A DNA stretch of 64,000 nucleotides from an uncultured Candidatus Saccharibacteria bacterium (lineage in GTDB: Bacteria > Patescibacteriota > Doudnabacteria > UBA920). The DNA is taken from positions 200,226 to 264,225 of the forward strand of contig CAZEKH010000001.1 in the NCBI GenBank assembly GCA_964512925.1. The letters are read 5' to 3'. The notes beneath the pieces are model-generated. The model saw only the letters and a list, made by a program, of their open reading frames with translations, searched no databases and was not told where the DNA came from. Shown piece by piece: positions 10,750 through 62,042 of this stretch; position 1 is the stretch's first letter; every line of letters starts with the position of its first letter. The position numbers and the translations under genes are program-made.

Positions 10750-11973
10750 ATGGAAGAAATAAAGAAGCAAATTTTTGTAAAACGCCCTGTTTTAGGCGAG
10801 ATATACAAAAATTTTGGGCATTTGAAATTAGCGGAATACATCAGGTTATGGCAAATATCTCATATTGAGCCTGACCCGCTTTTTTTAACTGTATTAAATA
10901 GCAAAGCCAACGGGCTTTACGGAGCTGAAATCGCTCAAAAGCTAACTGAGCAAATCAAGAGTCGTCCTATTGTTTCAACCGTTGATCATTTGGGCATCTG
11001 GGGGCATCCGATTTTTGTTAACGCTACAACAATTTTTTCTTTGGCTTTTAAGCAGGACGAGCTAGTTCCAGTCCTTGCAACTGAAAGTGTTTCTTTAAAC
11101 AATACCAGCTCATGGTCGGGGAGTGTTTTAAATCGTCAGGAAGATGGTAAGTTGGTGAGGCACTCCTTTTTTCCTGACAGGCAAAAAACACTGCCTGTGT
11201 TTTCCTGCCCGGAGGTTTCAGAGGAAAGGTATAGCAAAATTTTACAAAAAATTCAGCCCCGCTTTTTACCGGAGAGGCTGCCTGAAGAAAACAATTTTTC
11301 TTCCCAGGCTTGTCTTTTAAGTAGTCATATATGTCAGCAAGTGTTTCCTTCTGCGCCAAAACTGGCATATCTCCCATTGGAGAGCATTGTGGGGGAGTAT
11401 CTAGAGAAGGTTATAAAAGACAAAAATCATCCCATCGCAAAAATCATCATATCCAGCAAAGGGTATGAACTTTGGCAAAAGCATTTCTCCAGCGAACACA
11501 CTTTTTTGTTTTGGGGAATAGATCAAAAGGGGAGAAGAGATAAAATTGAAAAAGAGAAGTATATTGAAATATTGGACAAAAACCAATTGGCGGAACTTTT
11601 GGAACAAAGAAAAATTTATGCTTCAAGCCCGTTGTGCTTTTTAGTTTTGCTCTACTCCGGCCTTACTTGCGCGGGCGGGTTTACCCAGACAACCTGGCTT
11701 TCGGATACCAAAGAAAAAATTATTGAAATCTTTCAAGAAATGGGGGAGAGTGATGCTTTAAATAATATCAATAATATGCCGACAAAAAATTTCGCAGAAA
11801 GTCTTTTGGCAAGCCTTGGAACAGAAGGAGAGCAATATATTCCAACCGCGCTTGATTTGTTTAACTCAGGTAAGGACTGGTACCCGGAGTTTAAAGCCAA
11901 AGCAGAAATGATTAGCTTGAAAGAATCCATAGATACCTTTTTGCCAGAGATATATAAAGTGGTGTGTGGTTAG
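10750..11973 (+). CDS. hypothetical protein
   Basis: 407-aa ORF, no recognisable motif. Confidence 0.35.
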   Translation: MEEIKKQIFVKRPVLGEIYKNFGHLKLAEYIRLWQISHIEPDPLFLTVLNSKANGLYGAEIAQKLTEQIKSRPIVSTVDHLGIWGHPIFVNATTIFSLAFKQDELVPVLATESVSLNNTSSWSGSVLNRQEDGKLVRHSFFPDRQKTLPVFSCPEVSEERYSKILQKIQPRFLPERLPEENNFSSQACLLSSHICQQVFPSAPKLAYLPLESIVGEYLEKVIKDKNHPIAKIIISSKGYELWQKHFSSEHTFLFWGIDQKGRRDKIEKEKYIEILDKNQLAELLEQRKIYASSPLCFLVLLYSGLTCAGGFTQTTWLSDTKEKIIEIFQEMGESDALNNINNMPTKNFAESLLASLGTEGEQYIPTALDLFNSGKDWYPEFKAKAEMISLKESIDTFLPEIYKVVCG

Positions 11974-12055
11974 GTAAAACCCTTTCGGCTATTGGAGAGC
12001 TGCCCGCCGTGGCTGTTCGGGCGGGAATCCTTTATATTTATTACAATTGTTGTAA

Positions 12056-12097
12056 CCTCACCCCAACCCTCTCCCATATGGGAGAGGGGGAGGTTGG
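12056..12097. repeat. Family-A element, full form CCTCACCCCAACCCTCTCCC-ATAT-GGGAGAGGGGGAGGTTGG
   Basis: intergenic; outer and inner arms both complementary. Confidence 0.75.
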
Positions 12098-12263
12098 TTT
12101 GACAACTTTTATTTTCCTGTTAAACTATATTTATATATGAAGTATATAATCTTAAATTCCTATTGGTTTTGGTTTACCCGCTCGTTTGAGCTTGGGAATT
12201 TTGGGTTATGTTCAAAGTACTGATATTTGATATACTGATGATCTACTAAACTAACCCCAAACT

Positions 12264-12295
12264 TCCGGACTCAAGCTGATGTCCGGGTTTTTTTA
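12264..12295 (+). terminator. rho-independent terminator (CCGGAC…GTCCGGG + T-run)
   Basis: GC hairpin followed by TTTTTTTATTTTT. Confidence 0.6.
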
Positions 12296-12317
12296 TTTTT
12301 GCTTTAGGAGGTAGTAA

Positions 12318-12491
12318 ATGCAAAAGGAACTTCGATGCACAAAAGGTCACCTGTTGGTGACCAGAGAATCTGCGGCTGGCATTGAAGCCAGTTGCCCAAC
12401 CTGTCAAATTGAATTAACCCATATTAGCATATTATTGAAAGCTAATGAGGCTGTATGGGCACAAAAGGAGGAAACCTCAACCGCTGTTTAA
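12318..12491 (+). CDS. hypothetical 57-aa protein with zinc-ribbon-like CxxxH…CxxC spacing
   Basis: strong SD AGGAGG 8 nt upstream of ATG; lies between two rho-independent terminators; below the 60-aa ORF-track cutoff. Confidence 0.3.
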   Translation: MQKELRCTKGHLLVTRESAAGIEASCPTCQIELTHISILLKANEAVWAQKEETSTAV

Positions 12492-12532
12492 GTTTTGGTT
12501 TTGTCAGGGCGAGGAATTTGAGTTTTCTTACT

Positions 12533-12597
12533 ATGTCATTCCGGCCATCGAGCCGGAATCTATGTACCTGGATCCTGGATCAAGTCCGGGATGACAT
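12533..12597. repeat. Family-B hairpin elements (ATGTCATTCCGGCC-N6-GCCGGAATCTAT … GATCAAGTCCGGGATGACAT)
   Basis: intergenic; outer arms ATGTCATYCCGG / CCGGGATGACAT. Confidence 0.6.
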
Positions 12598-12738
12598 AAA
12601 TAATAGACCATTTTCCTGACCCTGAATAAAAGGGCGAGATTGAGAAAGGAGGAGTGTCATGCGATGGCCTGATGCCACTGGTTGGGGAAATTGATCAAAA
12701 TGATCCGCTTGTAGCCAGAGGGGCGAAGTGCTTTGGCT

Positions 12739-12767
12739 GGCCGAGATTTATTCTCGGCCTTTTTTTA
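12739..12767 (+). terminator. rho-independent terminator (GGCCGAGA…TCTCGGCC + T7)
   Basis: perfect 8-bp stem and T-run. Confidence 0.6.
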
Positions 12768-12899
12768 TTGGACATTTTCAGCTATAATTATATAAATAAA
12801 AAAAATGATGAAAATGAGCATAAATGATAAAAATTGTAGGATTTTTGCATTTAATTTTTGTCATTTGTTTAATTTTTGATCATTCTTGTCATTCATATT

Positions 12900-13616
12900 A
12901 TGTCTCTCATACAAATCAAAAATCTGACCAAAGATTATATAAACGAAGACGTGGTAACATCGGTACTTCACGGGATGACTTTTAACATAGAAAAAGGCGA
13001 GTTTGTCGCGATAATGGGCCCTTCCGGTAGCGGTAAGTCCACGCTTATGCACATTCTTAGTTTTTTAGACAGGCTTTCAGGAGGGGAGTATTTTTTTGAA
13101 GGACAGGACACAAGAAATTTCGAAGACGAGTATTTGTCTACTTTGAGAAACGAAAAAGTGGGATTTGTGTTTCAGTCTTTCAATCTGCTGCCTAGAACTA
13201 CAGTTTTAGACAATGTTAAACTACCACTTTTGTATTCAGATCTCAAAAATCACGACGAACTGGCAAAAAAAGCTTTGGACTCAGTCGGACTCTCACATAG
13301 AATGGAATTTTTTACTAACCAGATATCTGGTGGGGAAAAACAAAGAGTAGCCATAGCCAGGGCTTTGGTTTGTAACCCTTCTGTGCTTTTTGCAGACGAA
13401 CCTACCGGCAACTTGGACTCAAAAAGCGGCAACACGGTAATGCAAATTTTGCAAAAACTTAATAACGAAGGCAGAACAATCATACTTGTCACCCACGAGC
13501 AGGACACAGCTAATCACGCTAAAAGAATTATACGAGTAAAAGATGGACTTGTTGCCTCAGATGAGCAAGTCAAGCAAAGGACTATTGCTAGTGGAGACAA
13601 GGAGCTGCTTAAATAG
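12900..13616 (+). CDS. ABC transporter ATP-binding protein, LolD/MacB/FtsE-like
   Basis: Walker A GPSGSGKST, signature LSGGEKQRVAIARAL, Walker B LFADEPTGNLD; ATG 12900 in frame with track start 12876 (TTG). Confidence 0.85.
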   Translation: MSLIQIKNLTKDYINEDVVTSVLHGMTFNIEKGEFVAIMGPSGSGKSTLMHILSFLDRLSGGEYFFEGQDTRNFEDEYLSTLRNEKVGFVFQSFNLLPRTTVLDNVKLPLLYSDLKNHDELAKKALDSVGLSHRMEFFTNQISGGEKQRVAIARALVCNPSVLFADEPTGNLDSKSGNTVMQILQKLNNEGRTIILVTHEQDTANHAKRIIRVKDGLVASDEQVKQRTIASGDKELLK

Positions 13617-13652
13617 TATTAAGTATGTTGTATAAAGTATTTTGCGATAAGA

Positions 13653-13708
13653 CTCCTTCTCCGATACCTGCCCGTCCGGCAGGCGGGTCGGAGAGGGTTG
13701 GGGTGAGG
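13653..13708. repeat. Family-A long variant with extra inner hairpin (…TCTCCGACCCGCCTGCCGGACGGGCAGGTATCGGAGA…)
   Basis: intergenic; near-identical to copy at 18383 in opposite orientation. Confidence 0.75.
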
Positions 13709-13821
13709 TAATAAAGTTTGAATATCAAACCAACTTTAGATTATTACAATTGTTAATATATCATTGTCGTCAATTGCTTTAGATTTCAAGAATATGTTAT
13801 CCATTTGCTGAATATATAGTA

Positions 13822-13857
13822 GAAAAAAAGAAGACCGGCATCGAGGAGCGATGCCGG
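13822..13857 (-). terminator. rho-independent terminator on minus strand (CCGGCATCG…CGATGCCGG + T-run)
   Basis: 9-bp perfect stem; A-run on plus strand = T-run on minus strand. Confidence 0.5.
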
Positions 13858-13885
13858 CGGATGTTCCGGGCGCATCACGCACTGG

Positions 13886-14083
13886 TTAGTGCGTGATGCG
13901 CCACACGATCCCCGCGAGGGTTTTGGTTATCGGGAGGAATGCCTCCCGAATTAGTCCCCCCCAGGGACCCCAAAGTGCTACAATCACGAACGCCACGGCT
14001 GCAAGCAGCCACATGTGTTCGATGATCGCATTTGCTTTCCGGTCGTGCCGGAAAGCGGAAAAAACGGAATGAAACGATGTCAT
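13886..14083 (-). CDS. hypothetical small (65-aa) membrane protein in a high-GC pocket
   Basis: ATG at 14083 within ORF 13886..14173; one TM helix (WLLAAVAFVIVALWGPWGG); followed on the minus strand by two strong hairpins and a T-run. Confidence 0.3.
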   Translation of the reverse strand: MTSFHSVFSAFRHDRKANAIIEHMWLLAAVAFVIVALWGPWGGLIREAFLPITKTLAGIVWRITH

Positions 14084-14188
14084 CTCTCTCTCTTTTCTAG
14101 AAACCCACACAACGGTGTTGCTAGGAGAGAGGAGATGAACTGCGAAGATAACTTTAGAAATTATAACATACATTAACTATACTGTCAA

Positions 14189-15454
14189 GTGAATTTTATT
14201 AGCACAATTAGGCTGGTTATAAGGGGGCTTTTGGCAAGAAAAGGCCGGTCGTTTTTGACGATTTTAGGTATTGTGATTGGAGTTGCCGGGGTGGTGGTTA
14301 TCATTGCTTTGGGCGCTGGCGCTCAGAGTTTGGTGTTAGGGCAGGTGTCTAAATTGGGCAGTAATATAGTTGGGATTTTACCAGGCAAGAGCAATGAAAC
14401 CGGACCGCCGGCAGCTGTGTTTGGCATACAAATAAAAACTTTGACCCTGGAAGACGCGGAAGCTATAAAAAAAAGCGGACGCGTGCCAAATGTGTCAGCA
14501 GTAGCCGGGTTTGCCCGCGGCCAGGGGACAGTAGTTTTTCAGGATAAAAATGTCGACACTTTTTATACTGGCGCTCAGGCGTCGGTAGTTAACATTCAAA
14601 ATATAGAAATGGAAGCCGGTAGATTTTTTACCGAGGAAGAGGAAAAAGGCGGGGCGCAGGTTGTAGTTTTGGGTTTTAGCGTTAAAGAGCAGTTGTTCGG
14701 TAGCGAGGACGTTTTAGGTAAGGCCATAAAAATTTCAGTAACCAGAGGCGACCAGACTTTTTCCGTACCGGCTATGGTGATAGGCACCATAAAAAAACAA
14801 GGCACAGTGGCTTTTCAAAACCAGGATGACCAGGTCTATATTCCCCTAAGCATTGCCCAAAAGCAACTTTTGGGTATCTCGCATTTGCAGTTTATCCGCG
14901 CCAAAGTTGTGGGAGAAGAAAACATTAAGTCCGTTATGGCTGACATCAAACAGCTTTTGATGGAGAGGCATAAAATCAAAACCGAAGACGAAGTGGATTT
15001 TTCTGTTCGGGACTTGGCTGACGCTCTCAAGCTTCTTTCCGGCATCACTGACGGGATGCGGATGTTTTTGACTTTGATGGCGGCGATTTCGCTGATAGTC
15101 GGAGGAATAGGGATTATGAACATAATGCTGGTAACCGTGGCAGAAAGAACCAGAGAGATTGGTTTAAGAAAAGCAGTGGGCGCCACAGCGAGGGACATAA
15201 GAAATCAGTTTTTACTTGAATCCTCTTTGGTTACTTTGCTCGGAGGTGTGATTGGTATTGTTTTAGGGGCATTCTTGGCTTACCTGGCAGCGTTAGGCGC
15301 GCGTTATGCGGGCTACGACTGGGCCTATGTGGTTTCGCTTGGTTCTATAGCTATGGCTGTGGGAGTTTCAATTTTAACCGGAATGGTTTTTGGGCTTTAC
15401 CCGGCCTTAAAAGCGTCAAAATTAGACCCAATAGAAGCTTTGAGATATGAGTGA
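14189..15454 (+). CDS. ABC transporter permease, MacB/LolCE (FtsX) family
   Basis: N-terminal TM, MacB periplasmic domain, C-terminal FtsX helices; downstream of the ABC ATPase. Confidence 0.8.
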   Translation: MNFISTIRLVIRGLLARKGRSFLTILGIVIGVAGVVVIIALGAGAQSLVLGQVSKLGSNIVGILPGKSNETGPPAAVFGIQIKTLTLEDAEAIKKSGRVPNVSAVAGFARGQGTVVFQDKNVDTFYTGAQASVVNIQNIEMEAGRFFTEEEEKGGAQVVVLGFSVKEQLFGSEDVLGKAIKISVTRGDQTFSVPAMVIGTIKKQGTVAFQNQDDQVYIPLSIAQKQLLGISHLQFIRAKVVGEENIKSVMADIKQLLMERHKIKTEDEVDFSVRDLADALKLLSGITDGMRMFLTLMAAISLIVGGIGIMNIMLVTVAERTREIGLRKAVGATARDIRNQFLLESSLVTLLGGVIGIVLGAFLAYLAALGARYAGYDWAYVVSLGSIAMAVGVSILTGMVFGLYPALKASKLDPIEALRYE

Positions 15455-15571
15455 GAAAATTTCTAATTACCTAATTCTGAATTAACCTAATTAAATCCCA
15501 AAATAAAACGATTTAAATAAATATGTGTATTATTAGAAATGAGAATAATTAGTTTAATAGAATAATTTGCT

Positions 15572-16831
15572 ATGCTCGTCGCTTTACAACAATCTATCAA
15601 AACACTTAGAAGCAACCTGGTACGCACTGCCCTGACGACTCTTGGCATTGTAATTGGCATTGCTTCGGTGGTGATGGTGCTGTCGGCAGGGGCGGGTTTT
15701 AAGTCGTACATAAATTCCCAGGTTTCCGCTTTTGGCAGCAATTTTATTACCGTGGAAACACGGGTGCCTCCTACAACTAAAAATCGGGCATCTGGTTCTT
15801 CCGGCGGTTCGCAGTCAAATTCGGCGAGTCAGGCGGTCGGCATAACCACTTTAAAGCAAAAAGATGTGGATGAAATTTCCAGGCTGCCAAATATTTCCGG
15901 AGCTTACGGCGCAGTGATCGGCCAGAAGATTGTTTCCTACAAAGCGGTGAGTAAAAATTCATTTGTGTTTGGAGCAAATGCGTAAAGATTTTCCATTGAT
16001 AGGGGAGTTTTGGCTAAAGGCAGGCCTTATAGCGAGATTGAGGATAGAGCGGCTGATCAGGTTGCAGTTTTGGGCGCGGATATCGCAATAGATCTTTTTG
16101 GTCAGGAAGACCCGCTAGGAAAGACCGTCAGGGTCGGTGAATATAATTTTTTAGTCATAGGGGTATATGAAAGAAGGGGTAGTTTTGGTTTTTCCAACGA
16201 CGACCAGCAAGTTTTTGTGCCGCTCAAGACAGCCCAAAAAAAACTTTTAGGAATTGATCATTTATTTTATGTCTTGGCGCAGGCCAAGGATCCTGCACAA
16301 GCAGAGGCCACTGCCGAAGATATGAGGTATATACTCAGGCAGAATCACGATATACAAGATCCTGCAAAAGATGATTTTGCGGTGCAAACCCAGGCGCAGG
16401 GACTGGAAACATTTGATCAAATCTTAAAAGGTATTACTTTTTTGCTCATTGCTGTGGCAGCGATTTCACTTTTGGTGGGCGGGGTGGGTATTATGAACAT
16501 AATGTATGTGGCGGTGACTGAAAGGATTGCTGAGATTGGGCTGAAAAAAAGCGTGGGCGCCAAAGAAAAAGATATTTTAGCTGAGTTTTTAACCGAAGCC
16601 GTGATCCTGACTGTTTTGGGGGGTGTTTTAGGTATACTTTTGGGAGCTCTACTATCTTATGGTGTAGCTTTGGGAGCTAGGGCTTTTGGTTTTGCCTGGG
16701 ATTTTTCAGTGCCAGCGTCTGGCGTGTTTTTGGGCTTGGGTGTTTCTACGGTAATCGGTTTGTTGTTTGGAGTTTTTCCGGCCAGGACTGCTGCAAAGAT
16801 GCAGCCTATCGATGCCCTCAGGAGCGAGTAA
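15572..16831 (+). pseudogene. second MacB/LolCE-family permease interrupted by an in-frame TAA (15983..15985); pieces 15572..15985 and 16010..16831 are in the same frame
   Basis: the two ORFs together match the full-length paralog 14189..15454; the stop falls where an aromatic residue is expected (…FGANA*RFSIDRG…), consistent with TAY->TAA. Confidence 0.6.
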
Positions 16832-16943
16832 AATAATCGATGATTGCAGATTAAATGATTTAACATTTGTTATGTATTATAATTACATTATAAGCTTTGA
16901 AAAGTTTTGCGCAAAAAATCAATCTAAAATCAAATAAATTTTT

Positions 16944-18176
16944 ATGAAAACAATTGTTATAGTCGGCGGGGGCTTTGCCGGGATTAATTGCGCCTTAGCT
17001 TTGGATAAAAACTTAAGTAAAGACGAAAGAGCGGAAATTTTGCTTTTAGACCGGCGGGATTATCATTTATTTACTCCGAATTTATATGAAATTGCCGCTG
17101 CGGACGAAGAATTTGTTTCAGTCGATGGTTTGAAAAAAAGCATTGCCTTGCCTTATGAAGAAATTTTTCAGGGCACTCAGGTAAAGTTTGCCCAGGGTGA
17201 AGTTTCAGACATGGATATAGTTAACAAAACTTTAAAATGTGGAATTCGGAAAATCAGTTTTGATTTTTTGGCGCTTACCGGCGGGTCGGAAAGTTTTGAT
17301 TTTGGCATTGATGGAGCCAAAGAGTATGCGTTGCCTTTAAAAACCTTGAAAGACGCGCTTCGTATCCGCAATGCTTTGAGTTTTGCTATAGAGCGAAGAA
17401 AAAGTGAAAATCCTTTGCCGGTTTTGAGGTTTGTGGTGGCTGGAGGCGGATATAGTGGGGTGGAAACCGCAGGTGAGTTGAGCGAACTTTCGGAAATTTT
17501 GGCTTGGAAGTACAGTTATCCTATAGAAAAGATTGAGATTTTAGTTTTAGAGGCGTCGAATGAATTGGTGTCTGGGTTTGACAAAAGGTTTAGCCAAGAT
17601 GCTTTGGCTAGGCTGAAGAATTTGGGAGTTAAAGTTTTGCTTAACGCTAAAATTTGCAAGATTGATCAAAATTTGGTTTATTTGCTTGGCGGGGAAGCGG
17701 TGCATTATGACGCGCTAGTTTGGACAGTTGGGGTTAAGGCGGTTAAACTGCCGGTTTTAGATACTCTGCCTATGGATGCGCGGGGCAGGATTTTGGCTGA
17801 TGAGCATTTAAAAGTTAAAACCAAGGCAAATATTTTTATAGCCGGCGATGTCGCGTCAGTTGCGGACAGTACAGGCAGGCCGGTTGTGCAGACTGCGCAA
17901 AACGCTATCCACCAGGGAAGGTTTTTAGGAGAAAATATTTACCGCGCAATGAAAAATTTGCCTCTTAAAGTTTACACGCCGAAAACCCACGGCTTTATAG
18001 CCTCGGTGGGCGGCAAGTGGGCAATTTTAAAATACGGCAATTTTTATTTAACTGGCATCATAGCCTACTTAGCCAACAAATTCGCTCACTTTAAATACTA
18101 TTGGGAAGTGGTTGGTTTTTGGAAAGCCTTTAAATACATTTGGCTCGAATGGGATGTTTATGGCAGAAATGATTAA
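16944..18176 (+). CDS. type II NADH dehydrogenase-like FAD/NAD(P)-binding oxidoreductase
   Basis: two Rossmann GxGxxG motifs (IVIVGGGFAG, VVAGGGYSGVE) and AGDVAS motif. Confidence 0.7.
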   Translation: MKTIVIVGGGFAGINCALALDKNLSKDERAEILLLDRRDYHLFTPNLYEIAAADEEFVSVDGLKKSIALPYEEIFQGTQVKFAQGEVSDMDIVNKTLKCGIRKISFDFLALTGGSESFDFGIDGAKEYALPLKTLKDALRIRNALSFAIERRKSENPLPVLRFVVAGGGYSGVETAGELSELSEILAWKYSYPIEKIEILVLEASNELVSGFDKRFSQDALARLKNLGVKVLLNAKICKIDQNLVYLLGGEAVHYDALVWTVGVKAVKLPVLDTLPMDARGRILADEHLKVKTKANIFIAGDVASVADSTGRPVVQTAQNAIHQGRFLGENIYRAMKNLPLKVYTPKTHGFIASVGGKWAILKYGNFYLTGIIAYLANKFAHFKYYWEVVGFWKAFKYIWLEWDVYGRND

Positions 18177-18261
18177 GAGAGTCTTTGATTTAAAGATTTA
18201 ATGATTGAAAATAAAATGATTGTTAACAGGAAATAATAAAAAAATAACTTATATTACAAAA

Positions 18262-18292
18262 ACCTCGGAATATTCCGAGGTTTTTGTTTTTT
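18262..18292 (+). terminator. rho-independent terminator (ACCTCGGAATATTCCGAGGT + T-run)
   Basis: perfect palindrome plus TTTTTGTTTTTT. Confidence 0.65.
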
Positions 18293-18295
18293 AAA

Positions 18296-18330
18296 ACCCT
18301 CTCCCATTTGGGAGAGGGGTAGGGGTGAGG
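18296..18330. repeat. Family-A element
   Basis: intergenic, just after the NDH-2 terminator. Confidence 0.7.
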
Positions 18331-18382
18331 TTACGATGAATGTAAAAATAACTAGAGTTTAATTAAAATTTGAACTTTATTA

Positions 18383-18440
18383 CCTCACCCCCTAACCCTC
18401 TCCGACCCGCCTGCCGGACGGGCAGGTATAGGAGAGGGAG
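18383..18440. repeat. Family-A long variant
   Basis: abuts the topA stop codon. Confidence 0.75.
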
Positions 18441-20795
18441 TTATTGAGCTTTCTTTTTACCATAAACCTTGCGAGGTTTTGGAGGGTTTTCCTTCCAGTG
18501 TTTTAGGGCTTCTTGGAGTTCTGCTTCACTTTCAGGTTTTTTGGACATTATAAAGTTGCAATCCGGAAAACGATTGCAGGCATAAAAGAGTTTACCGCGG
18601 CCGCGGGATTTTCTTTCTACCACATCGCCAGTTTGGCAATTGGGACATTTAAACCCGGTTTTGTTCCAAATTTTGCTGATGCCTTTGCATTTGGGGTAGT
18701 CAACACAGCCCAAGAAAAATCCAAACCGCCCTTTTTTGACTTTCATTTCTTTGCCGCAGATGGGGCAGACTTCGCCCTTGGTTTTTTCTTCCAAAGCTTT
18801 GATCTGGGCTTCTTCTTCCGGCATTGGCTTGGTGGTTTTGCACTCAGTATCTGGGCAGGCCATAAATTTACCGGTCCGGCCGAATTTGATGATCATCATT
18901 TTGCCGCATTTCGGACAGGGGATGGTGGTTACCTCAATCTGTTTTTCCACACTCGCTTCTTTTTCTTTCAGATGTTTTTTGAAAGGTCCGTAAAATTCGT
19001 GCATTACCTCGGTCCATTTCATTTTGCCTTCCGCTATCTGGTCAAATTCTTCTTCTATATGCGAAGTAAAGTTTATATCTACGATCTCAGGAAAATTTTC
19101 AACCAGCATATCGGTTACCAAAAACCCTTCTTCAGTGGGCTTGAATTTTTTTTCTTCCTTGGTTACATAACCGCGGACCTCTATGGTGGACAGTGTAGGA
19201 GCATAGGTTGAGGGTCTGCCAATGCCGTGGGCTTCCAGCGCTTTAACCAGGCTGGCGTCCGTATACCTGGCAGGGGCTTCAGTAAAATGCTGGAGCGGCA
19301 AAAGCTCGTGAAGTTTGAGTTTTTCTTGTTCTGACAGCTCAGGCAGCATACCTTCTATCTCATCTTCCGGTTTTTCATCCGACCCTTCGGTATAGGCGCG
19401 GATAAATCCGTCAAACTTTATGACTTGTCCGTTGGCGCGAAAGACATAATTATTGATCTGCTGATTTTCTGCTTGCCCTTCATAGCCTTGGCGAAGGAGG
19501 GATCTACTGGCAGGCTTGGCTTCTATATCCACCGCAGTTTGTTCCATCAACGCAGCCTGCATCTGACAAGCGATGGTTCGTTTCCAGATTAAGTCATAGA
19601 GCCGAAACTGCTGTCTGTCTAAATATTGTTTTAAATTTTCAGGTTTTCTTAAGACATCGGTTGGACGTATGGCTTCGTGCGCTTCCTGCGCGCCTTTAGA
19701 CTTGTTGGTAAAATGTCTGGGTTCAGACAGACCGTATTCTTTGCCGAATTCGGCAGAGATGACTTGGCCTATGGCAGTTAAAGCTGATTGAGCCAGGTTC
19801 AAACTGTCGGTACGCATATAGGTGATAAGTCCCTGGTGGCCTTCATCGCCAATATCAATTCCTTCATAGAGCTGTTGAGCTACCATCATTGTCTGTTTGG
19901 CTGACATACCGAGTTTGCGCGCCGCTTCTTGTTGGAGCGTGGAAGTGGTAAAAGGGGCGGATGGATTTCTTTTAACTTCTTTTTTGGTAATTTCAGAAAT
20001 TTGATAATTTGCGCCTTCAAGATCAGCGACAATTTTTTTGCCTTCAGTCTCAGACTTGATATCCATTTTGCCCACAGTTTTGTCGCCGATTTTGTGGAGT
20101 TTGGCTATGAAGGTTTTATAACTCCCCCCATCCCCCTCTTTAGTTAAAGAGGGGGTGCCGGAGGCGGGGGAGTTTTTGGATAGCTTTGCTTCTATGCTCC
20201 AATACTCTTCCGCAACGAATTTTTGGATTTCCCTTTCCCGTTCAACAACAAGCCTGACAGCCACTGACTGGACGCGTCCGGCTGAAAGACCATACCGGAT
20301 TTTTCGCCAAAGAAAAGGGGAGAGTTCATAACCTACAAGCCTGTCTAAAACCCGCCGAGCCTGTTGGGCGTCAACCAAGTTGATATCTATAGAGCGGGGG
20401 TTTTCTAAGGCGTGTTGGATGGCGGTTTTGGTAATCTCGTGGAAAACGATGCGTTGAATGTTTTTGACGGATGAGGTTTTGCCTTTAGTTTTATTGAGAT
20501 CCAGCGCTTCTATCAAATGCCAGGAGATACTTTCTCCTTCGCGGTCTTCGTCAGTGGCAAGGATGATTTCCTGGCTGTCCTTGGCCAGTTTTTTTAGTTT
20601 GGCAACAGTTTCTTTGGCTTTAGCTGGGATGGAGTAGGTGGGTTCAAAGTCGTGTTCAGTGTCCACGCCCATTTTGCTTTTTGGCAAGTCGCGTACGTGA
20701 CCAAAGCTGGCTTCTACTGTGTAGCCACTGCCTAAAAAACGCGAGATGGTTCTCGCTTTGGTCGGGGACTCGACGATGATAAGAGGCTTGGACAT
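18441..20795 (-). CDS. topA: DNA topoisomerase I
   Basis: TOPRIM N-terminus, Topo IA core, C-terminal zinc-ribbon repeats; in-frame palindromic-element insertion encoding …NSPASGTPSLTKEGDGGS…. Confidence 0.9.
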   Translation of the reverse strand: MSKPLIIVESPTKARTISRFLGSGYTVEASFGHVRDLPKSKMGVDTEHDFEPTYSIPAKAKETVAKLKKLAKDSQEIILATDEDREGESISWHLIEALDLNKTKGKTSSVKNIQRIVFHEITKTAIQHALENPRSIDINLVDAQQARRVLDRLVGYELSPFLWRKIRYGLSAGRVQSVAVRLVVEREREIQKFVAEEYWSIEAKLSKNSPASGTPSLTKEGDGGSYKTFIAKLHKIGDKTVGKMDIKSETEGKKIVADLEGANYQISEITKKEVKRNPSAPFTTSTLQQEAARKLGMSAKQTMMVAQQLYEGIDIGDEGHQGLITYMRTDSLNLAQSALTAIGQVISAEFGKEYGLSEPRHFTNKSKGAQEAHEAIRPTDVLRKPENLKQYLDRQQFRLYDLIWKRTIACQMQAALMEQTAVDIEAKPASRSLLRQGYEGQAENQQINNYVFRANGQVIKFDGFIRAYTEGSDEKPEDEIEGMLPELSEQEKLKLHELLPLQHFTEAPARYTDASLVKALEAHGIGRPSTYAPTLSTIEVRGYVTKEEKKFKPTEEGFLVTDMLVENFPEIVDINFTSHIEEEFDQIAEGKMKWTEVMHEFYGPFKKHLKEKEASVEKQIEVTTIPCPKCGKMMIIKFGRTGKFMACPDTECKTTKPMPEEEAQIKALEEKTKGEVCPICGKEMKVKKGRFGFFLGCVDYPKCKGISKIWNKTGFKCPNCQTGDVVERKSRGRGKLFYACNRFPDCNFIMSKKPESEAELQEALKHWKENPPKPRKVYGKKKAQ
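20123..20172. repeat. Family-A-like element
   Basis: in frame inside topA. Confidence 0.65.
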
Positions 20796-30616: not shown

Positions 30617-30704
30617 GATTAATTTCTAATCATTCTAATTGCTCTAATCATCTAAATTATTATTAGAATAATTAGGGCAATTAGGTTAATTAGATATTTG
30701 AATT

Positions 30705-31268: not shown

Positions 31269-32519
31269 ATGGCAAAAGAACAATACATCGTAGGTCTGGA
31301 CATTGGCACGCAAAATATGCGCGCGGTTCAAGCTAAGATAGACCGGGAAACCGGTAAATTTTCAGTTGTCGGATTAAGCGAAACTCCGTCTTTGGGTATG
31401 CGCAAAGGCCAGCTGGTAGACATAGAAGAAGCGGTATCGTGCATTTCTCAGGTTTTAGAGAAATTGGAAAGGATGACCGGCGTGCCTGTTTCTTCGGCCT
31501 ATGTATCCATCGGCGGCAGTCATATTTTGTCTATGAACTCACACGGCGTGATCGCCGTTTCTCGTCCGGACGGCGAGATCGCGGAAGCGGACATTGTCCG
31601 TTGCGTGGACGCCAGCCAAGCCATAGCTTTGCCGCAAAACCGGGAAGTTTTGCACGTGTTTCCGAAAAATTTTGTTCTGGACGGACAGACCGGGATAAAA
31701 GACCCTTTGGGTATGTCCGGCATCAGGCTTGAGGTGGATACCATTATAGTCCACGCGGGTCTGCCTTTTGTGCGCAATTTAAACAAAGCTGTTTTGCAGG
31801 CTGGGCTTGAAAGCGAAGAGTTGGTGTTAGCTCCGCTGGCCGCTTCAGAAGCAGTGTTGTCTAAAAAACAAAAAGAGCTGGGCGTATGTGTTTTGGATTT
31901 GGGCGCTGGTACAACCGGCCTGACTGTGTTTGAAGAAGGGGATTTGCTACATACCGCTGTTTTGCCTTTGGGCTGCCAACATATAACCAATGACATTGCT
32001 ATTGGGCTTAGAACTTCTGTGGAAACCGCGGAAAAAGTTAAACTTTTATACGGCCACGCAGACCCCAAGGCCGCGGAAAAAGGCGAAGAGATAGATCTGT
32101 CCAAGATTGACGCGCACGAAGTGGAAAGCGCGGACCGGCAATATGTTTTAGAGATCATTGAAGCGCGCCTGGAAGAAATTTTTCATTTGGTGTCCGGGGA
32201 ACTAAAAAAAATCTCCCGCGACGGCAAGTTGCCGGCTGGGGTGGTTTTGTGCGGCGGGGGAGCGGAGCTGCCCGGGATACTGGATTACGCGAAAAAAACA
32301 CTTCGCCTGCCTGCGGTTTTAGGCTCTGCCCAAAACATAGAAACCGTGATAGATCGCGCTTATGATCCGGCGCTTGCCACCGCAGTCGGACTTTTACTCT
32401 GGCAAAAACAGTATGGCAGCGGCGGAAGCTTCGGCTCGTCCTTCGGCTCTGTCACCAAAGCCTTCTCCGGCCCGGGAGTGGAAAAAGTAAAAAATTGGTT
32501 TAAAGCATTATTACCGTAA
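31269..32519 (+). CDS. ftsA: cell division protein FtsA
   Basis: actin-like ATPase (VGLDIGTQNMR…), C-terminal amphipathic tail. Confidence 0.9.
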   Translation: MAKEQYIVGLDIGTQNMRAVQAKIDRETGKFSVVGLSETPSLGMRKGQLVDIEEAVSCISQVLEKLERMTGVPVSSAYVSIGGSHILSMNSHGVIAVSRPDGEIAEADIVRCVDASQAIALPQNREVLHVFPKNFVLDGQTGIKDPLGMSGIRLEVDTIIVHAGLPFVRNLNKAVLQAGLESEELVLAPLAASEAVLSKKQKELGVCVLDLGAGTTGLTVFEEGDLLHTAVLPLGCQHITNDIAIGLRTSVETAEKVKLLYGHADPKAAEKGEEIDLSKIDAHEVESADRQYVLEIIEARLEEIFHLVSGELKKISRDGKLPAGVVLCGGGAELPGILDYAKKTLRLPAVLGSAQNIETVIDRAYDPALATAVGLLLWQKQYGSGGSFGSSFGSVTKAFSGPGVEKVKNWFKALLP

Positions 32520-33916: not shown

Positions 33917-35002
33917 ATGAAATTGCGTTTTTCTTGCGCCCTCGCGGCGCTTTTGCTGTTCGTTTTTGCTTCGGCTGCCCACGCGGCTGAAGATGTTGAA
34001 ATTTCGTTGGTTGGACAGCCGGGGGTGATGGACGCCCTTCAGGCGTCCGACCTAGAGCTCAACGAGCAGATTGGCGGGATTGAAAACCCTGCCAATCTTA
34101 TCAGCCAGCTTCATCTGGCTGATGGTTCTCGGGTTACGCCCGAGAATGCTCACACGCTTTCGGTCAAGTCAGTTTTTTTGAGCAGAAATGCTCAGGAAGA
34201 CGGCCCTGGCGCCGCTCGGTTCCTTGCCGAGTGCAACCGCCTCGCTACCACCCGGCAGCAGGCTATTGCCTCCGCCCGCCGTTCAGCCAACCGCATCGAT
34301 GCGGTTCAGTCCGAAGCGGACGACCGCCAGCTGCTCACGCAGATGGCGGAAATGCAGTCCGAAATCAACGCGCTCAACGAGCGCGTTGAAACTCTCGTCG
34401 AAGAAAAAACCGCCGCCGTTCAGCGTGCGGAAACCGCGGAGCAAAAACTAGCCGCCCTCCAAGCGGCTGGAACCCCGAAACCTTCATCGGCCGCCCCTCC
34501 GGCGACCGACACCCAGAAACAGTTCGAACCAGCTGGCACGAGCCAGAAGAAAGGTGTTTTGGCGGTTCGCCAGGTTGTGCCTCCGTGCCGACCCGGTGTC
34601 AACACTCGGCCGTGCAGTATGGCTGAGGTTGAAAAAACCATTTTAGAGCAGGAACTGGGGGGCATTATACCCCAAATCACAACGCTCTTAATAGTTTTGT
34701 TGATATTTTTCTCGGCCGCGATTGTTGCGGGTACGAGTGGTGCGTTCCAAGCGTGGGCTGATGTCTACGCCACGGTTAAAAAAGCTGGGAAACCCCAGCA
34801 ACCCATCGCGGCCTCAAATATCTATGCTGTTTTACAGCAGCAAGCCAATTTGGGAAATCCACCCAACCTAGAATCTTTAAAAAACCGGCGTCCCACATGG
34901 GAACGTAGAGAAAAAGATAGAAGGGATGGTGGCGACCGCAGGTCGCCAGAATCGGGTCAAGTCATTGAAATTTCGACCGACGCGAGTCGGGCAACAGGCT
35001 GA
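33917..35002 (+). CDS. secreted coiled-coil protein with C-terminal TM helix and Arg-rich tail (high-GC gene)
   Basis: signal peptide MKLRFSCALAALLLFVFASAAHA; Ala/Glu/Gln-rich coiled coil; GC and GC3 clearly above the genome background. Confidence 0.5.
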   Translation: MKLRFSCALAALLLFVFASAAHAAEDVEISLVGQPGVMDALQASDLELNEQIGGIENPANLISQLHLADGSRVTPENAHTLSVKSVFLSRNAQEDGPGAARFLAECNRLATTRQQAIASARRSANRIDAVQSEADDRQLLTQMAEMQSEINALNERVETLVEEKTAAVQRAETAEQKLAALQAAGTPKPSSAAPPATDTQKQFEPAGTSQKKGVLAVRQVVPPCRPGVNTRPCSMAEVEKTILEQELGGIIPQITTLLIVLLIFFSAAIVAGTSGAFQAWADVYATVKKAGKPQQPIAASNIYAVLQQQANLGNPPNLESLKNRRPTWERREKDRRDGGDRRSPESGQVIEISTDASRATG

Positions 35003-35249
35003 AAACGCAAAAAAAGTGAAAAAGGTCTCACCGCGGTTGCGGTGAGGTAAAGATCTCCATCGGCGCTATACGCGCCGCAAGTCAGGTAAACCCTGATGAT
35101 GAGATCCCTAAAATTCACAAAACACCAGCCGCTCCGATGTCCATCGGAGCGGCTTTTACATTGCAATATTTTATATGTTTTTACCTGACAATCTTATATA
35201 AATAAAATCTAAAAATTATTAACAACCCAAACCTCCAAAACCTCAAAAA

Positions 35250-35280
35250 AAACTGAAAAAACTGAAAAAACTGAAAAAAA
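35250..35280. repeat. tandem (AACTGAAAA)x3
   Basis: immediately 5' of the Family-E palindrome. Confidence 0.6.
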
Positions 35281-35336
35281 TTTTGCTGTCAACTATGACA
35301 CATATGTGTTACGATTGACAGCAAAATTTTTTTCAG
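35270..35336. repeat. Family-E AT-rich long palindrome (…AAATTTTGCTGTCAACTATGACACATATGTGTTACGATTGACAGCAAAATTT…)
   Basis: 35 nt upstream of the PaaX-like gene; inverted copy at 36031..36078 and a third copy at 61966..62016. Confidence 0.7.
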
Positions 35337-35365
35337 GTATTTTGGATTAAATAACAAAAATATAT

Positions 35366-36025
35366 ATGGGTTACCATAAAAATTCATTTGTTTCTGAGAT
35401 TAACAATGCTACCGCTACTAACAAACCTGTTTTTGAGTTAAGCGATCAGCAAGTGGAGCAGTTTAAAACCGCATCAGCCTATGTTTTAGGAGTGGTGGGG
35501 GTTTTGGGTGTGGTGGCAGTAGCCGCAGTAGCTCCCAATTTGGTTGGCGCTATTTACAAAATTCATAAAACTTTCAAAAAGAAAAAGCCGCTTTTTCAAC
35601 AAAGGCAAAAGGCCGTGGCTGAAACATTCTTTTATCTGAAAAGGCATGGGTTTATAGATATTTCCAAAACTGAGAAGGGCTTTTTTGCAAACATAACTGA
35701 AAAAGGGAAAAAGCGTTTACTAAAATTGACTATGGACAATGTTTTTGTGCCGAAGCGCCAAAAATGGGATGGTAAATGGTGGCTGGTTGCAGCTGACGTG
35801 CCAACAAAGAAATATAGGGCCGGAGCGGATTCTTTGCGCAGAAAGATTAAACAAATGGGTTTATTTCCGCTTCAGAGGACAATGTGGTTTTATCCTTTTG
35901 ACCCTTCAGCACAAATAGAGTACATTGCCAATCATTTTGGCATTGGGAATTTTGTGACTGTGATGGAGGTTTCGCGTCTCGATAAAGAAGATGAAAAAAA
36001 ACTAAAGGATTTCTTTAAAATTTAA
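35366..36025 (+). CDS. membrane-anchored PaaX-like (PaaX_C-type) putative transcriptional regulator
   Basis: TM segment; C-terminal WDGKWWLVAADVP…LRRKIKQMGLFPLQRTMWFYPF resembles the PaaX C-terminal domain; gene bracketed by inverted palindromic repeats. Confidence 0.4.
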   Translation: MGYHKNSFVSEINNATATNKPVFELSDQQVEQFKTASAYVLGVVGVLGVVAVAAVAPNLVGAIYKIHKTFKKKKPLFQQRQKAVAETFFYLKRHGFIDISKTEKGFFANITEKGKKRLLKLTMDNVFVPKRQKWDGKWWLVAADVPTKKYRAGADSLRRKIKQMGLFPLQRTMWFYPFDPSAQIEYIANHFGIGNFVTVMEVSRLDKEDEKKLKDFFKI

Positions 36026-36030
36026 TACTT

Positions 36031-36078
36031 GAATTGCTGTCAATCATAACACATATGTGTCATAGTTGACAGCAATTC
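36031..36078. repeat. Family-E palindrome, inverted relative to the 35281 copy
   Basis: begins 6 nt after the PaaX-like gene stop. Confidence 0.7.
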
Positions 36079-36373
36079 AGTGTTGTTTAGTAGCATTGGC
36101 AGAATTAGCATTGGCAGTGTTGTGGAGTTTTTAGGTGTATTTTGATTTTTGAAGTTATAAATTCATTCAAATGGCAACAATTTTGCTATCTAGTTCAGCT
36201 ATAAAAAAACCTCATAAATAAAGCAGAAAAACTGGTTAATTTGGTTTTAACAAACTCTTGACAAGTGGGGGTTTTTTTGTTATAATGTTAAGTCATTATT
36301 ATCAGTGGCTTTTGGGATGGTGTTTTTAAAACATTTATCCCTAAAATCCGGTAGTAATGAAGCACATTTACAA

Positions 36374-36512
36374 ACGCGGATTTTCGCAGACTGTAGCAAT
36401 ACAGCGCGGATTTTACGCGGAAATAGCGTTACTTATATATACGCGGACTTTGTAGACTGAACGCGGACTGACGCGGATCTTGGAAACAAGGCGCGGATTT
36501 CATGCGGATTCG
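36374..36512. repeat. array of ~8 degenerate direct repeats of (A/G)CGCGGA(T/C)TT
   Basis: ACGCGGATTTT, GCGCGGATTTTA, CGCGGAAAT, ACGCGGACTTT, ACGCGGACTGA, CGCGGATCTT, GCGCGGATTTCA, TGCGGATTCGG within 140 bp. Confidence 0.6.
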
Positions 36513-36589
36513 GTACACAAGAAAAATCTTCATAAACATTGTTCGTGTCCTTTGCGGTAAATGTCTTATTGCTTTTAACAGAGGTTCGA

Positions 36590-36644
36590 CCTCTCCCGCC
36601 CCGATGTCCATCGGGGCACCCTCCCCAGGCCTGGGGAGGGTAAG
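36590..36644. repeat. Family-A variant with inner CCCCGATGTCCATCGGGG hairpin
   Basis: intergenic; CCGATGTCCATCGG core recurs at 35131..35150. Confidence 0.6.
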
Positions 36645-36793
36645 AAGAATAGGACTATTGCTGCAAAGGACACAAATCCTTTGGTGAATTTGAGTTTGGT
36701 TTTTTTAAGTTTTTCTGCCCGTCACTTCTGCCGCTTGGCAAAAAGGACGAGGCATAACAAGAAATTGATCGAAATCTGTCTTAGGAGACTACA

Positions 36794-37426
36794 ATGTTTG
36801 GAAAAAAGAGTTCGTTCATTCTTGCCGCGGCTTTCGCGGCTTCCACGATGATCGCGCCCGTTATGGCGCAAAACCAGTTTTTGCCCACGACGGTAAACCC
36901 ACCGGCAACGGTGACCCCGGCCGCAGGTGGGCAGGTGATTTTCCTGCCTCTTGCACCACAGGCGCAACCCGCGCCACCGCCCGCAGCTTCGATTGCGACC
37001 TGTCCGGCTCCGCCGGCGGGTATGCAGATCACTTGCACCCCGGTGCAAGGCACTCAACAAGCTTGCTGCAATACGCAAACTTCTACGGCTTCGGTTGTGT
37101 GGTGGTCCACAATGTGGACGCCGTTAATCATTTTGACCTTACTAGGCATCTTGGGCTATTGGCTAACCCACCGCCGCGCAGCCGCTCCGGTCAACCAGAT
37201 GGTAGGCCAAGCAAACGTGGTCTGGCAGCCGCCTACTGTCACGGTTTCGGCCGTGCCATTTGTGGTTGGCGGACCTCAACCAGTTTTTCCAGGAGCTCCG
37301 GCTCCTGTCCGCCCGGTTGGCGCGCCTCGTCCGGCTCCTGCGGCAGGTAACTGTCGGCATTGCGGACAACCGCATCCTGCAGCAAGCATTTTCTGCCCCA
37401 CCTGTGGTGGGCAACTCATGCCGTAG
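36794..37426 (+). CDS. secreted/membrane proline-rich protein with C-terminal CxxC…CxxC zinc ribbon (high-GC gene)
   Basis: signal peptide, Pro/Ala-rich regions, central TM helix, C-terminal CRHCG…CPTCGG; preferred over overlapping minus-strand ORFs because of the signal peptide and SD. Confidence 0.45.
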   Translation: MFGKKSSFILAAAFAASTMIAPVMAQNQFLPTTVNPPATVTPAAGGQVIFLPLAPQAQPAPPPAASIATCPAPPAGMQITCTPVQGTQQACCNTQTSTASVVWWSTMWTPLIILTLLGILGYWLTHRRAAAPVNQMVGQANVVWQPPTVTVSAVPFVVGGPQPVFPGAPAPVRPVGAPRPAPAAGNCRHCGQPHPAASIFCPTCGGQLMP

Positions 37427-38197: not shown

Positions 38198-38266
38198 TCC
38201 GCCAGCTGGCGGATTGGGGAGAAAAATATTGAATACTGCTTTGGGATTTATGATTTAGAGTTGCAA

Positions 38267-38303
38267 CCTCTCCCCAACCCTCCCCTCAGTAGGGGAGGGA
38301 GTA
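38267..38303. repeat. Family-A element
   Basis: repeat hotspot. Confidence 0.65.
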
Positions 38304-52406: not shown

Positions 52407-52498
52407 AATTGTTCCTGCCTACCAGCAGGCAGGCTAATTTCTAATTATACTAATTGACCTAATAAAATTTTCAATAAACAATTTTCAATCAATTTTAA

Positions 52499-52912
52499 AT
52501 GCTTAAATTTTTGAATGTTAAAAAAGGTATTTATTTAGGGTTAGTAATTTTTTTAGCCGCAAGTTGTGGCGTAAAAACTAAACCCTCTACCCTTGACCCT
52601 ATACCCTCAGCCGTACAGCAAATCCAGGTGAGGCATAAAGTTGAGGGAGTGGACAGGGGTGACCAGCTGTTTAACTTTTATGAAAATGAAAACAAAACCG
52701 CTTTAGACCTTTTAAAAAGCGGGCACAATGTGGAGACAAAAAGTTTTTCCGGAGTGGGTGAGTTTGTGGAAAGTATAAACGGAGTTAAAGCGGACGGGAA
52801 AAAAGAATTTTGGGCATTTTACTTAAACGGTCAGCAAGCCCAGGTTGGGGCATCGGATTATAAGCCAAAAAATGGAGATGTGATAGAATGGAAAGTGGAG
52901 AAGATCAAGTAG
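52499..52912 (+). CDS. DUF4430-like lipoprotein (putative cobalamin-binding)
   Basis: lipobox LAASC; C-terminal …FWAFYLNGQQAQVGASDYKPKNGDVIEW… typical of DUF4430. Confidence 0.5.
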   Translation: MLKFLNVKKGIYLGLVIFLAASCGVKTKPSTLDPIPSAVQQIQVRHKVEGVDRGDQLFNFYENENKTALDLLKSGHNVETKSFSGVGEFVESINGVKADGKKEFWAFYLNGQQAQVGASDYKPKNGDVIEWKVEKIK

Positions 52913-53094
52913 TTGAACAAAGTTATACTTTTGGGTTAGGGTTTAAGTGAATAAATTAAAATAATATTTAACAGACATTGAAAATTAATCTAATTTCTAA
53001 TTGTTCTAATTGACCTAAAATTAAATTGCTTCGGATTTTTTAGAATAATTATTAATTAGTCCGCCAGATGGCGGAAATTAGAACAATTTAAAAT

Positions 53095-56597: not shown

Positions 56598-56635
56598 TTA
56601 TTAAATATCTAGGACTTAATTACTTTCCCTTCTTT

Positions 56636-56668
56636 CCCCCTCCCTTGAGGGGAGGGGTTAGGGGAGGG
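56636..56668. repeat. Family-A element
   Basis: intergenic between cyclophilin and ndk. Confidence 0.7.
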
Positions 56669-56722
56669 TGATAATAATAGCCGTATCATTTAGCTTTGAT
56701 CATTAATTTTTAAAAAATTTAA

Positions 56723-61940: not shown

Positions 61941-61965
61941 ATTTTACAATTTAATATCCCTAACA

Positions 61966-62016: not shown

Positions 62017-62042
62017 TTTTTAGGAATTATTTGACAAATACA

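Follow-up and report, generated by a model that had tools for sequence, protein, structure and literature searches.

PaaX, known from Escherichia coli and Pseudomonas (structures 8a39 and 3l09), is the phenylacetyl-CoA-responsive repressor of the paa genes. A gene for a shortened, membrane-anchored relative of PaaX, bracketed by two copies of a long AT-rich palindrome, lies within a 64,000-nucleotide (nt) stretch of DNA (the window; positions 200,226 to 264,225 of contig CAZEKH010000001.1, assembly GCA_964512925.1) from an uncultured Candidatus Saccharibacteria bacterium that GTDB places among the Doudnabacteria. With some reserve, we favor the reading that this gene (35366-36025 of the window, + strand) encodes a membrane-tethered, truncated autorepressor of the PaaX type that has one operator on its promoter and an auxiliary operator past its stop codon. 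PaaX itself consists of a winged helix, followed by a dimerization motif and then a C-terminal domain (PMC9493321). The E. coli protein recognizes the site TGATTC(N27)GAATCA, a pair of short inverted arms spanning 39 base pairs (bp), and it represses its own Px promoter through steric hindrance of RNA polymerase (PMC9493321).

In the window, the upstream putative cognate site (site A, 35283-35324) spans 42 nt and is nearly palindromic, with TTGCTGTCAA/TTGACAGCAA as outer arms, imperfect spacers, and ACATATGT as the core; its self-complementarity reaches past these 42 nt, at 85% over 35265-35342. The downstream putative cognate site (site B, 36034-36075) is palindromic out to 36030-36079 and matches the reverse complement of site A at 41 of 42 positions, with one mismatch. 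Since B mirrors A even at those positions where A is not self-complementary, the pair in the window are true inverted repeats. A solo third copy (site C, 61972-62013, palindromic out to about 61960-62021) has the orientation of A, is identical to it at 37 of 42 positions, carries similar A/T-rich flanks, and lies between the 3' ends of the convergent genes 61023-61940 (+) and 62043-62780 (-). None of the three sites is assigned to a strand. The distance from the end of the core of A to the ATG is 41 nt (about 34 nt if measured from its AAAATTT extension), and the core of B begins 8 nt past the stop codon (4 nt from the extension). Thus, the original prediction, made from the sequence alone, was about right in placing one copy 35 nt upstream of the gene and an inverted one 6 nt downstream, and it correctly noted the third copy between convergent genes and a tandem repeat beside the copy at 35281. 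This repeat, (AAAAAACTG) x3.7 at 35247-35279 (+), is probably a slippage product, and its last unit is the outer extension of palindrome A. The pattern TTGCTGTCAA-N8-CATATG-N8-TTGACAGCAA occurs three times in the window, where none is expected by chance (shuffled sequence). Within the window the half-site TTGCTGTCAA is exact only at A, B, and C; three one-mismatch matches elsewhere are at chance level. A scan of a collection of genome contigs, in which the window's own genome appears not to be represented, for TTGCTGTCAA-N18-26-TTGACAGCAA returned 25 single matches in unrelated taxa, approximately the chance expectation.

The layout, with other site sequences, extends well past this genome, to a large uncharacterized protein family in uncultivated bacteria of the candidate phyla radiation (CPR) type. 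A protein search finds a family of homologues, 180-240 residues long, all of which match PF20803, the PaaX central Cas2-like domain (E values of 1e-14 to 1e-21). These are unnamed or "hypothetical" proteins from metagenomes and metagenome-assembled genomes (MAGs), one of them a Candidatus Doudnabacteria MAG. A profile search of 1.84 billion representatives yields 709 clusters (50% identity) at E < 1e-30 and 2968 at E < 1e-10. The first two homologues examined, 51% and 48% identical to the window protein, have a palindrome of about 40 nt on each side, with different arms and a similar center (CACATATGTG or CACAATTGTG), and bracketing is seen in homologues down to about 28% identity. The family was surveyed at 80 loci from metagenomes (contigs often short; start codon taken as the first ATG of the open reading frame, ORF), in which sites were found by comparing flank with flank, using the 99th percentile of cross-locus controls as the threshold. 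A repeat common to the upstream and downstream flanks exceeds this threshold at 57 of the 69 loci for which both flanks are available. After removal of near-duplicates, such a repeat is present around 45 of 60 family genes versus 3 of 202 neighbor genes from the same loci (Fisher p 7e-34); gene 52499-52912 of the window is among only three bracketed control genes because of a 29-nt repeat, CTAATTTCTAATTRTWCTAATTGACCTAA, described below. At least one locus that was scored negative in fact carries a site pair, since inspection of L103 (loci of the survey are numbered with the letter L) reveals GAAYGCAC-N8-CCTATAGG-N8-GTGCGTTY. In addition, bracketing holds for all 8 further genes of the family that lie on long contigs (two in L111, and those of L112, L113, and L115-L118, where L115 is the L004 contig with longer flanks).

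Both the arms and the core vary between genomes, and the type of core tracks the protein clade, being CAWWTG in the clade of the window protein and CGATCG, CTATAG, or CCATGG in clades of shorter proteins. Paralogues, which are 30-40% identical, carry their own distinct sites even when they are present on one contig, as in L111 (two genes 5 kb apart) and in L039 and L049, both on Ga0209541_10000520. Consequently, the site belongs with the gene rather than with the genome. The bracket is conserved and specific to this protein family, and the sequence of the site changes with the protein, paralogues included. There is no conserved neighbor gene; the largest cluster of neighbors is present in 5 of about 78 loci, and the neighbors are housekeeping genes. 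The family is practically absent from viral contigs, with a single weak match among 2.9 million. Four loci (L033, L077, L081, L082) have two or three copies of the upstream site in tandem. Elsewhere, extra copies are scarce and mostly sit beside the gene: one lies 420 nt downstream in L104, a further one follows the next gene in L117, and none is found within 10 kb on either side in L111-L113, L115, L116, or L118. On the L117 contig, which belongs to a MAG, the cognate sites are located at 6313-6352, 7045-7084, and 8387-8424, and the third follows a RecQ-like DEAD helicase gene (7095-8378). The middle site lies inside the 57-nt gap before the helicase gene, which is thereby bracketed as well, and the helicase may be a regulated target.

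The anatomy of the site was obtained from 88 sites of 44 loci, aligned on their centers (five loci with a misplaced center were left out). The self-complementary fraction is 0.84-1.00 at positions 1-4 from the center, 0.55-0.62 at 6-9, and 0.70-0.84 at 10-17, and it falls to background beyond about 20. This profile describes a tripartite unit of 38-40 bp: inverted arms on the outside, a palindromic core, and between them AT-rich spacers that pair poorly. Identity between both copies of a locus remains at least 0.72 out to position 17, spacers included (0.72-0.85), and then drops to background. Spacers that are kept between copies and yet are poorly self-complementary fit readout of sequence rather than a hairpin. 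The center of the upstream site lies a median of 44 nt before the start codon and that of the downstream site a median of 46 nt past the stop codon, which the site abuts in many loci; the median distance from center to center is 723 bp. Judged from sequence, the span of these putative operators and their widely spaced arms, 10-18 nt from the center, match the geometry of the PaaX operator, which likewise has widely spaced inverted arms over about 39 bp. The sites of the window family differ from that operator in having an extra conserved palindromic core, and a second site past the stop codon is the rule among them.

The 219-residue protein resembles PaaX in its recognition helix, wing, and central Cas2-like domain, which are homologous; the counterpart of this domain in PaaX is the dimerization motif. 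Its features are a short external tail (residues 1-37), a transmembrane (TM) anchor (38-56) with an invariant P57-N58 at its cytoplasmic end, a lysine-rich linker (59-76), a PaaX-like recognition helix and beta wing followed by a further helix (77-124), and a Cas2-like PaaX_M domain with an invariant D144 (132-212). The segment 38-56 is the single strongly hydrophobic one (Kyte-Doolittle 2.5), so the TM anchor of the original prediction stands, and the net charges of its flanks (-1 on the N-terminal and +7 on the C-terminal side) indicate an N-out, C-in topology. PF20803 matches residues 132-212 (E 1.8e-13, 50.8 bits versus a cut-off of 24), with no other Pfam match above threshold. The sole PDB sequence match is E. 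coli PaaX (8a39), of which residues 56-170 (recognition helix, wing, and central domain) align. The Pfam model of the PaaX N terminus has no match, and in that part only PaaX residues 56-103, the recognition helix and wing, align. The equivalog model for PaaX, TIGR02277, gives 31.9 bits versus a cut-off of 264.55 and is covered only at positions 35-148 of 279. Because this match is limited to the middle of the model and the protein ends at residue 219, the PaaX C-terminal domain (PaaX_C) is absent. Thus, the resemblance to PaaX that had been predicted is real, but the part taken for the C-terminal domain is the central Cas2-like domain together with the recognition helix and wing. An AlphaFold2 model built from 30 homologues (confidence score, pLDDT, 83) contains a long hydrophobic helix, helix 77-93 with a beta hairpin and a further helix, and a beta-alpha-beta-beta-alpha-beta-alpha unit; in this model the membrane anchor takes the place of the helices that precede the recognition helix. 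In a Foldseek search the model ranks PaaX first (E 4e-6), followed by winged helices of the MarR, PadR, AspA, and TubR types and by Cas2 proteins (3exc, 5zyf, 6jhz). Gly48, inside the TM helix, and Pro57-Asn58 (window 35507-35539) are invariant in 30 diverse homologues, a constancy unusual in a plain anchor; helix packing, dimerization, or intramembrane proteolysis may be their role.

Compared with PaaX, then, the window protein is without a C-terminal effector-binding domain, and a TM anchor stands in for the first helices of the winged helix. No paa genes are found near the window gene, whose neighbors are ftsA, unknown membrane or low-complexity proteins, ftsZ, nrdR, and others. The two also differ at D144, which lies at the end of the first strand of the Cas2-like domain. 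This residue is invariant in 30 homologues and occupies the position of the catalytic Asp of Cas2, whereas E. coli PaaX has a Gly. Cas2 forms dimers, and Cas2/VapD-like nucleases have the same ferredoxin-like beta-alpha-beta-beta-alpha-beta fold with an Asp at the end of strand 1. Distant homologues of the window protein (P0059, P0063) match Cas2 hidden Markov models directly (1e-5 to 1e-6). However, no cas1, other cas genes, or CRISPR array is present nearby, either in the window or in the family loci, and the window protein, in which the domain is fused to a DNA-binding helix-wing and a membrane anchor, is nearer in sequence to PaaX_M than to Cas2 models. Searches of PADLOC and PHROGs give only weak Cas2, winged-helix, or LmuC-like matches. 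The membrane anchor recalls ToxR, CadC, TcpP, and BcrR, in which a TM segment holds a DNA-binding domain at the cytoplasmic face of the membrane and the DNA target is captured there. These regulators are not homologous to the window family. In the ToxR/CadC type an N-terminal DNA-binding domain is followed by a sizeable periplasmic sensor, while in the window family the anchor is N-terminal; its external part has at most 37 residues (about 8 in shorter homologues), and so, unlike ToxR or CadC, it has no sensor domain.

Homology to PaaX, the geometry of the sites, their co-variation with the protein, and their specificity to each paralogue make it likely that the encoded protein is the factor that binds them. 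It is moderately likely that binding represses the gene's own promoter, as suggested by the promoter-like hexamers with which the upstream sites coincide. In the window, a consensus match, TTGACA-17-TATTTT (35315-35343, +), has the right arm of site A as its -35 hexamer, and the arm likewise takes the -35 position in L113 (TAGACA-17-TATGAT). In the clades of shorter proteins, it is the core that supplies a -35-like hexamer, and the -10 hexamer abuts or overlaps the right arm, for example TTGCCA-17-TATAAT in L094 and L075. A -10-like hexamer (at least 5 of 6 matches to TATAAT) is present on the gene-proximal side of 25 of 44 upstream sites versus 14 of 44 on the distal side (p 0.03), and versus 8 of 43 to the right of downstream sites (p 3.5e-4). 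In the proposed mechanism, a dimer would bind the tripartite palindrome of about 40 bp by its arms, AT-rich spacers, and palindromic core. Because the upstream site overlaps the putative promoter of the gene, binding would block RNA polymerase and thus give negative autoregulation, as PaaX does at Px. The second site would most likely be an auxiliary operator, which may loop to the upstream site and/or hold a protein roadblock that insulates the gene from neighboring transcription. Occasional further copies, such as site C in the window and the site after the L117 helicase, would be extra targets. An operator at the promoter with an identical or similar second operator hundreds of bp downstream is known from LacI (O1-O2), GalR (OE-OI), and DeoR. 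In the window family, the second putative operator differs from these in that it comes after the entire coding region, right at the stop codon, a placement kept family-wide.

Several observations weigh against this autorepressor. The downstream neighbor is convergent in 18 of 28 loci, so that there is no promoter there and the downstream site is not the operator of a downstream promoter; a pure operator model leaves this site unaccounted for, and copy C, too, lies between two 3' ends. Looping, an insulating roadblock, and membrane tethering all fit the downstream site. With most of its detectable sites beside its own gene, such a regulator has no obvious physiological output. The promoter calls are consensus matches, and promoters of the CPR are poorly known. 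The winged helix is incomplete, with only one helix and the wing before the Cas2-like domain. Conservation is high in the second half of the putative recognition helix (FYYLKR) while the arms vary widely, and a mutual-information scan for specificity-determining residues, dominated by high-entropy columns and phylogeny, picked out no determinants. A further difficulty comes from differences between the two copies of a locus. Differences at both mirror positions number 38, versus 23 expected, and in 16 cases, versus about 5.7 expected (p 3e-4), they are symmetric and compensated, so that both copies stay complementary (for example in L003, L036, L085, and L109); one-sided differences number 159. 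Moreover, L091 and L093 match over 5,809 bp except at two positions of the downstream site's right half that lie 2 nt from each other (L091 6557 and 6559). These substitutions change TATTGAC to TAGTCAC, a templated-looking switch that makes the half-site the reverse complement of the upstream left half. Together, the symmetric excess and the L091/L093 change suggest occasional exchange of half-sites, or selection on the formation of a hairpin or cruciform, besides recognition by protein. No such half-site change is found in four other strain pairs, and the idea that sites are hypervariable between near-identical strains, which L091/L093 alone would support, was dropped. A mismatch-free tract between L103 and L105 reflects a recombination boundary that lies 480 nt upstream and has nothing to do with the sites.

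The original prediction had held out two arrangements, a cassette resembling a miniature inverted-repeat transposable element (MITE) and a regulator flanked by its own palindromic operators. The family-wide bracket, the paralogue-specific sites, the PaaX-like geometry, and the apparent promoter overlap strongly favor the putative regulator. A mobile or recombining cassette, in which recombination or cleavage would take place at the palindromes, with the Cas2-like domain as the site-specific nuclease or recombinase, has precedents in REPtrons (a RAYT gene between inverted repetitive extragenic palindromes, REPs), in IS200/IS605, and in Xer-dif. In REPtrons and IS200/IS605, as here, imperfect palindromes bracket a gene and co-vary with its protein, and copies elsewhere are possible. 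The inverted copies A and B, whose asymmetric positions are inverted too, would suit such a cassette, as would D144 at the Cas2 catalytic position, the Cas2 matches of distant homologues, the variable genomic context, the excess of symmetric differences, and the half-site switch between L091 and L093 within 5.8 kb of otherwise identical sequence. However, the downstream copy is direct with respect to the upstream one at 26 loci and inverted at 10, with 8 ties (p 0.011), so that the inverted arrangement of the window is a minority state in the family. No direct repeat that could be a target-site duplication is present immediately outside A and B, as read from the window sequence. Copies are few (three in the 64-kb window), no recent identical paralogues were seen, the paralogues being old, divergent, and provided with different sites, and close strain pairs are collinear. 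The near-absence of the family from viral contigs also speaks against mobility, and a TM anchor would be odd for a transposase. The protein has no HUH, tyrosine-recombinase, or serine-recombinase domain (PaaX_M alone matches in Pfam and NCBIfam), and so, unlike the proteins of REPtrons and IS200/IS605, it is no HUH/Y1 enzyme. We consider a cassette of this kind quite unlikely; a MITE or terminal-inverted-repeat cassette in particular is disfavored by the orientation, the target site, the copy number, the age of the paralogues, and the viral contigs. A dispersed REP-like repeat is not supported over the 64-kb window and the family loci, where apart from C the extra copies adjoin the gene, the sites are specific to this gene family, and there is no HUH/Y1 transposase.

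Hairpins that act without any protein, as bidirectional terminators, stabilizers, insulators, or a 5'-3' pairing pair that happens to flank the gene, would draw on the stable folding of A, B, and C as RNA on either strand (-21 to -38 kcal/mol, z -5 to -12). Sites A and C have the A-run and T-run flanks of bidirectional intrinsic terminators, no hairpin other than B is present near the stop codon, the genes around C and around most downstream copies are convergent, and there is the excess of compensated changes. Yet a generic function would not be limited to one protein family or vary between paralogues, and the center of the site is itself palindromic, leaving AT-rich stems with no free loop, while the spacers are conserved between copies but poorly paired. 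Mismatches on the sense strand comprise 84 G.T and 67 A.C (p 0.19), and the lack of a significant G.T excess gives no support for a hairpin constraint at the RNA level. The T runs at A and C are not general in the family. A scan of the window for promoters and terminators did not call A, B, or C as terminators, and a search of the sites against Rfam gave only spurious microRNA-hairpin matches far below threshold. The upstream gene (33917-35002) ends in its own GC-rich hairpin with a T run, resembling an intrinsic terminator (35127-35154, +), which forms the left boundary of the unit; thus, site A is not needed as the terminator of that gene. Upstream copies, which overlap the putative promoter, would often go untranscribed. 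The usual intergenic hairpins of the window belong to a separate G-rich family (CCCTCTCC...GGAGAGGG). Nor is the palindrome a common intrinsic terminator found after many unrelated genes, a possibility that the original prediction had raised, because its occurrence is specific to one gene family. That candidate was ruled out, and the wider proposal of protein-independent hairpins is very doubtful. A third proposal keeps the protein but makes autoregulation a by-product: the membrane-anchored protein would bind both sites and pin a chromosome loop of about 0.7 kb, as a tether, an insulator, or a centromere-like device. Only about 18 residues separate the membrane from the DNA-binding helix, the sites are nearly confined to the gene's own flanks, no promoter is expected at the downstream site or at copy C between convergent genes, no neighbor gene is conserved, the Foldseek matches include the centromere-binding winged helices AspA and TubR, and the window gene lies between ftsA and ftsZ. 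However, the AspA and TubR matches represent generic winged-helix similarity, the ftsA/ftsZ context is not kept in other loci, and the upstream sites coincide specifically with promoter-like elements, so we regard a structural device as improbable. There is a similarly small chance that the module is not primarily a transcription switch at all and that the Cas2-derived protein either clamps the ends of its own gene to the membrane, as a tether or insulator, or acts on the palindromes as a site-specific nuclease or recombinase. Such a role would account for the Cas2 Asp that is retained, for a downstream site that lacks a promoter, for the surplus of symmetric changes, and for the half-site switch.

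Other features of the window and of the family loci were noted along the way. In the window, ftsA (31269-32519) and ftsZ (45057-46262) are 12.5 kb apart, and the interval holds the PaaX-like unit and several ORFs without a Pfam match. Stretches of this interval at 34-35, 37-38, and 39-40 kb have 56-59% G+C in a genome of about 40% G+C; they could represent an inserted island or low-complexity Ala/Pro-rich coding sequence. Just past the unit, a perfect sigma-70 consensus promoter (36258-36286; TTGACA-17-TATAAT, with an upstream TG) is followed by about 500 nt without an ORF of more than 60 amino acids. The stretch 36258-36800 includes about eight copies of CGCGGAYT (36375-36512) and GC-rich hairpins at 36596-36617 and 36620-36641, has no Rfam match, and may be an unannotated RNA or the long leader of gene 36794-37426. 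Three copies of the hairpin CCGCTCCGATGTCCATCGGAGC are present, at 35129-35150, 36596-36617, and 44619-44640, the second with a compensatory change of T/A to C/G; that they have a loop sequence in common points to something more specific than generic termination. The G-rich hairpins (CCCTCTCC-loop-GGAGAGGG and variants) are present at no fewer than 12 intergenic places (at least 12; for example 8990-9029, 12031-12105, 13652-13718, 18295-18441, 38242-38302, 44867-44929, and 56635-56674); they are apparently the common hairpin of the genome and have no relation to the AT-rich palindrome. The 29-nt direct repeat CTAATTTCTAATTRTWCTAATTGACCTAA (30619-30647, 52434-52462, and 52990-53018) lies 40-80 nt upstream of three genes on the + strand, at 30705, 52499 (DUF4430), and 53095 (DUF6580), and adjoins a gene for a BtuR/CobO adenosyltransferase; it is probably the common promoter, operator, or leader of a small regulon. 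Among the other loci, the family gene of L112, a Doudnabacteria MAG, is directly upstream of a type IV secretion-like cluster (11035-20678; TrbL_3, PrgI, TraC-like, TraG-type ATPase, PDDEXK_3). L113 has a similar run of large genes downstream (11007-20675) that shows, of the Pfam matches of L112, PDDEXK_3 alone; the type IV secretion-like context of L112 is not common to the window. In L111 (contig_3625, 223 kb), topoisomerase I, SMC, RNase III, and seryl-tRNA synthetase are among many housekeeping genes that are called in pieces, which points to an alternative genetic code or to long-read errors left uncorrected.

Repressors resembling PaaX, palindromic operators, and autoregulation are kinds of things already known. 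New is their combination with an N-terminal anchor that replaces part of the winged helix, the absence of an effector domain, a retained Cas2-type Asp, and a conserved second site past the stop codon, and no paper in the literature searched ties PaaX-like proteins to CPR/Patescibacteria, to Cas2, or to the layout of a gene between two sites. The layout alone provides dozens of predicted pairs of protein and DNA site, which could be used to read the recognition code of PaaX-type winged helices. For organisms beyond the reach of culture, it also raises the question of why a tiny cell keeps a membrane-bound DNA-binding protein that detectably targets both ends of the gene encoding it. Should the downstream site be a loop anchor, roadblock, or membrane tether, it would represent a new regulatory or architectural principle; otherwise, the family would be a tidy new subfamily of autoregulators.

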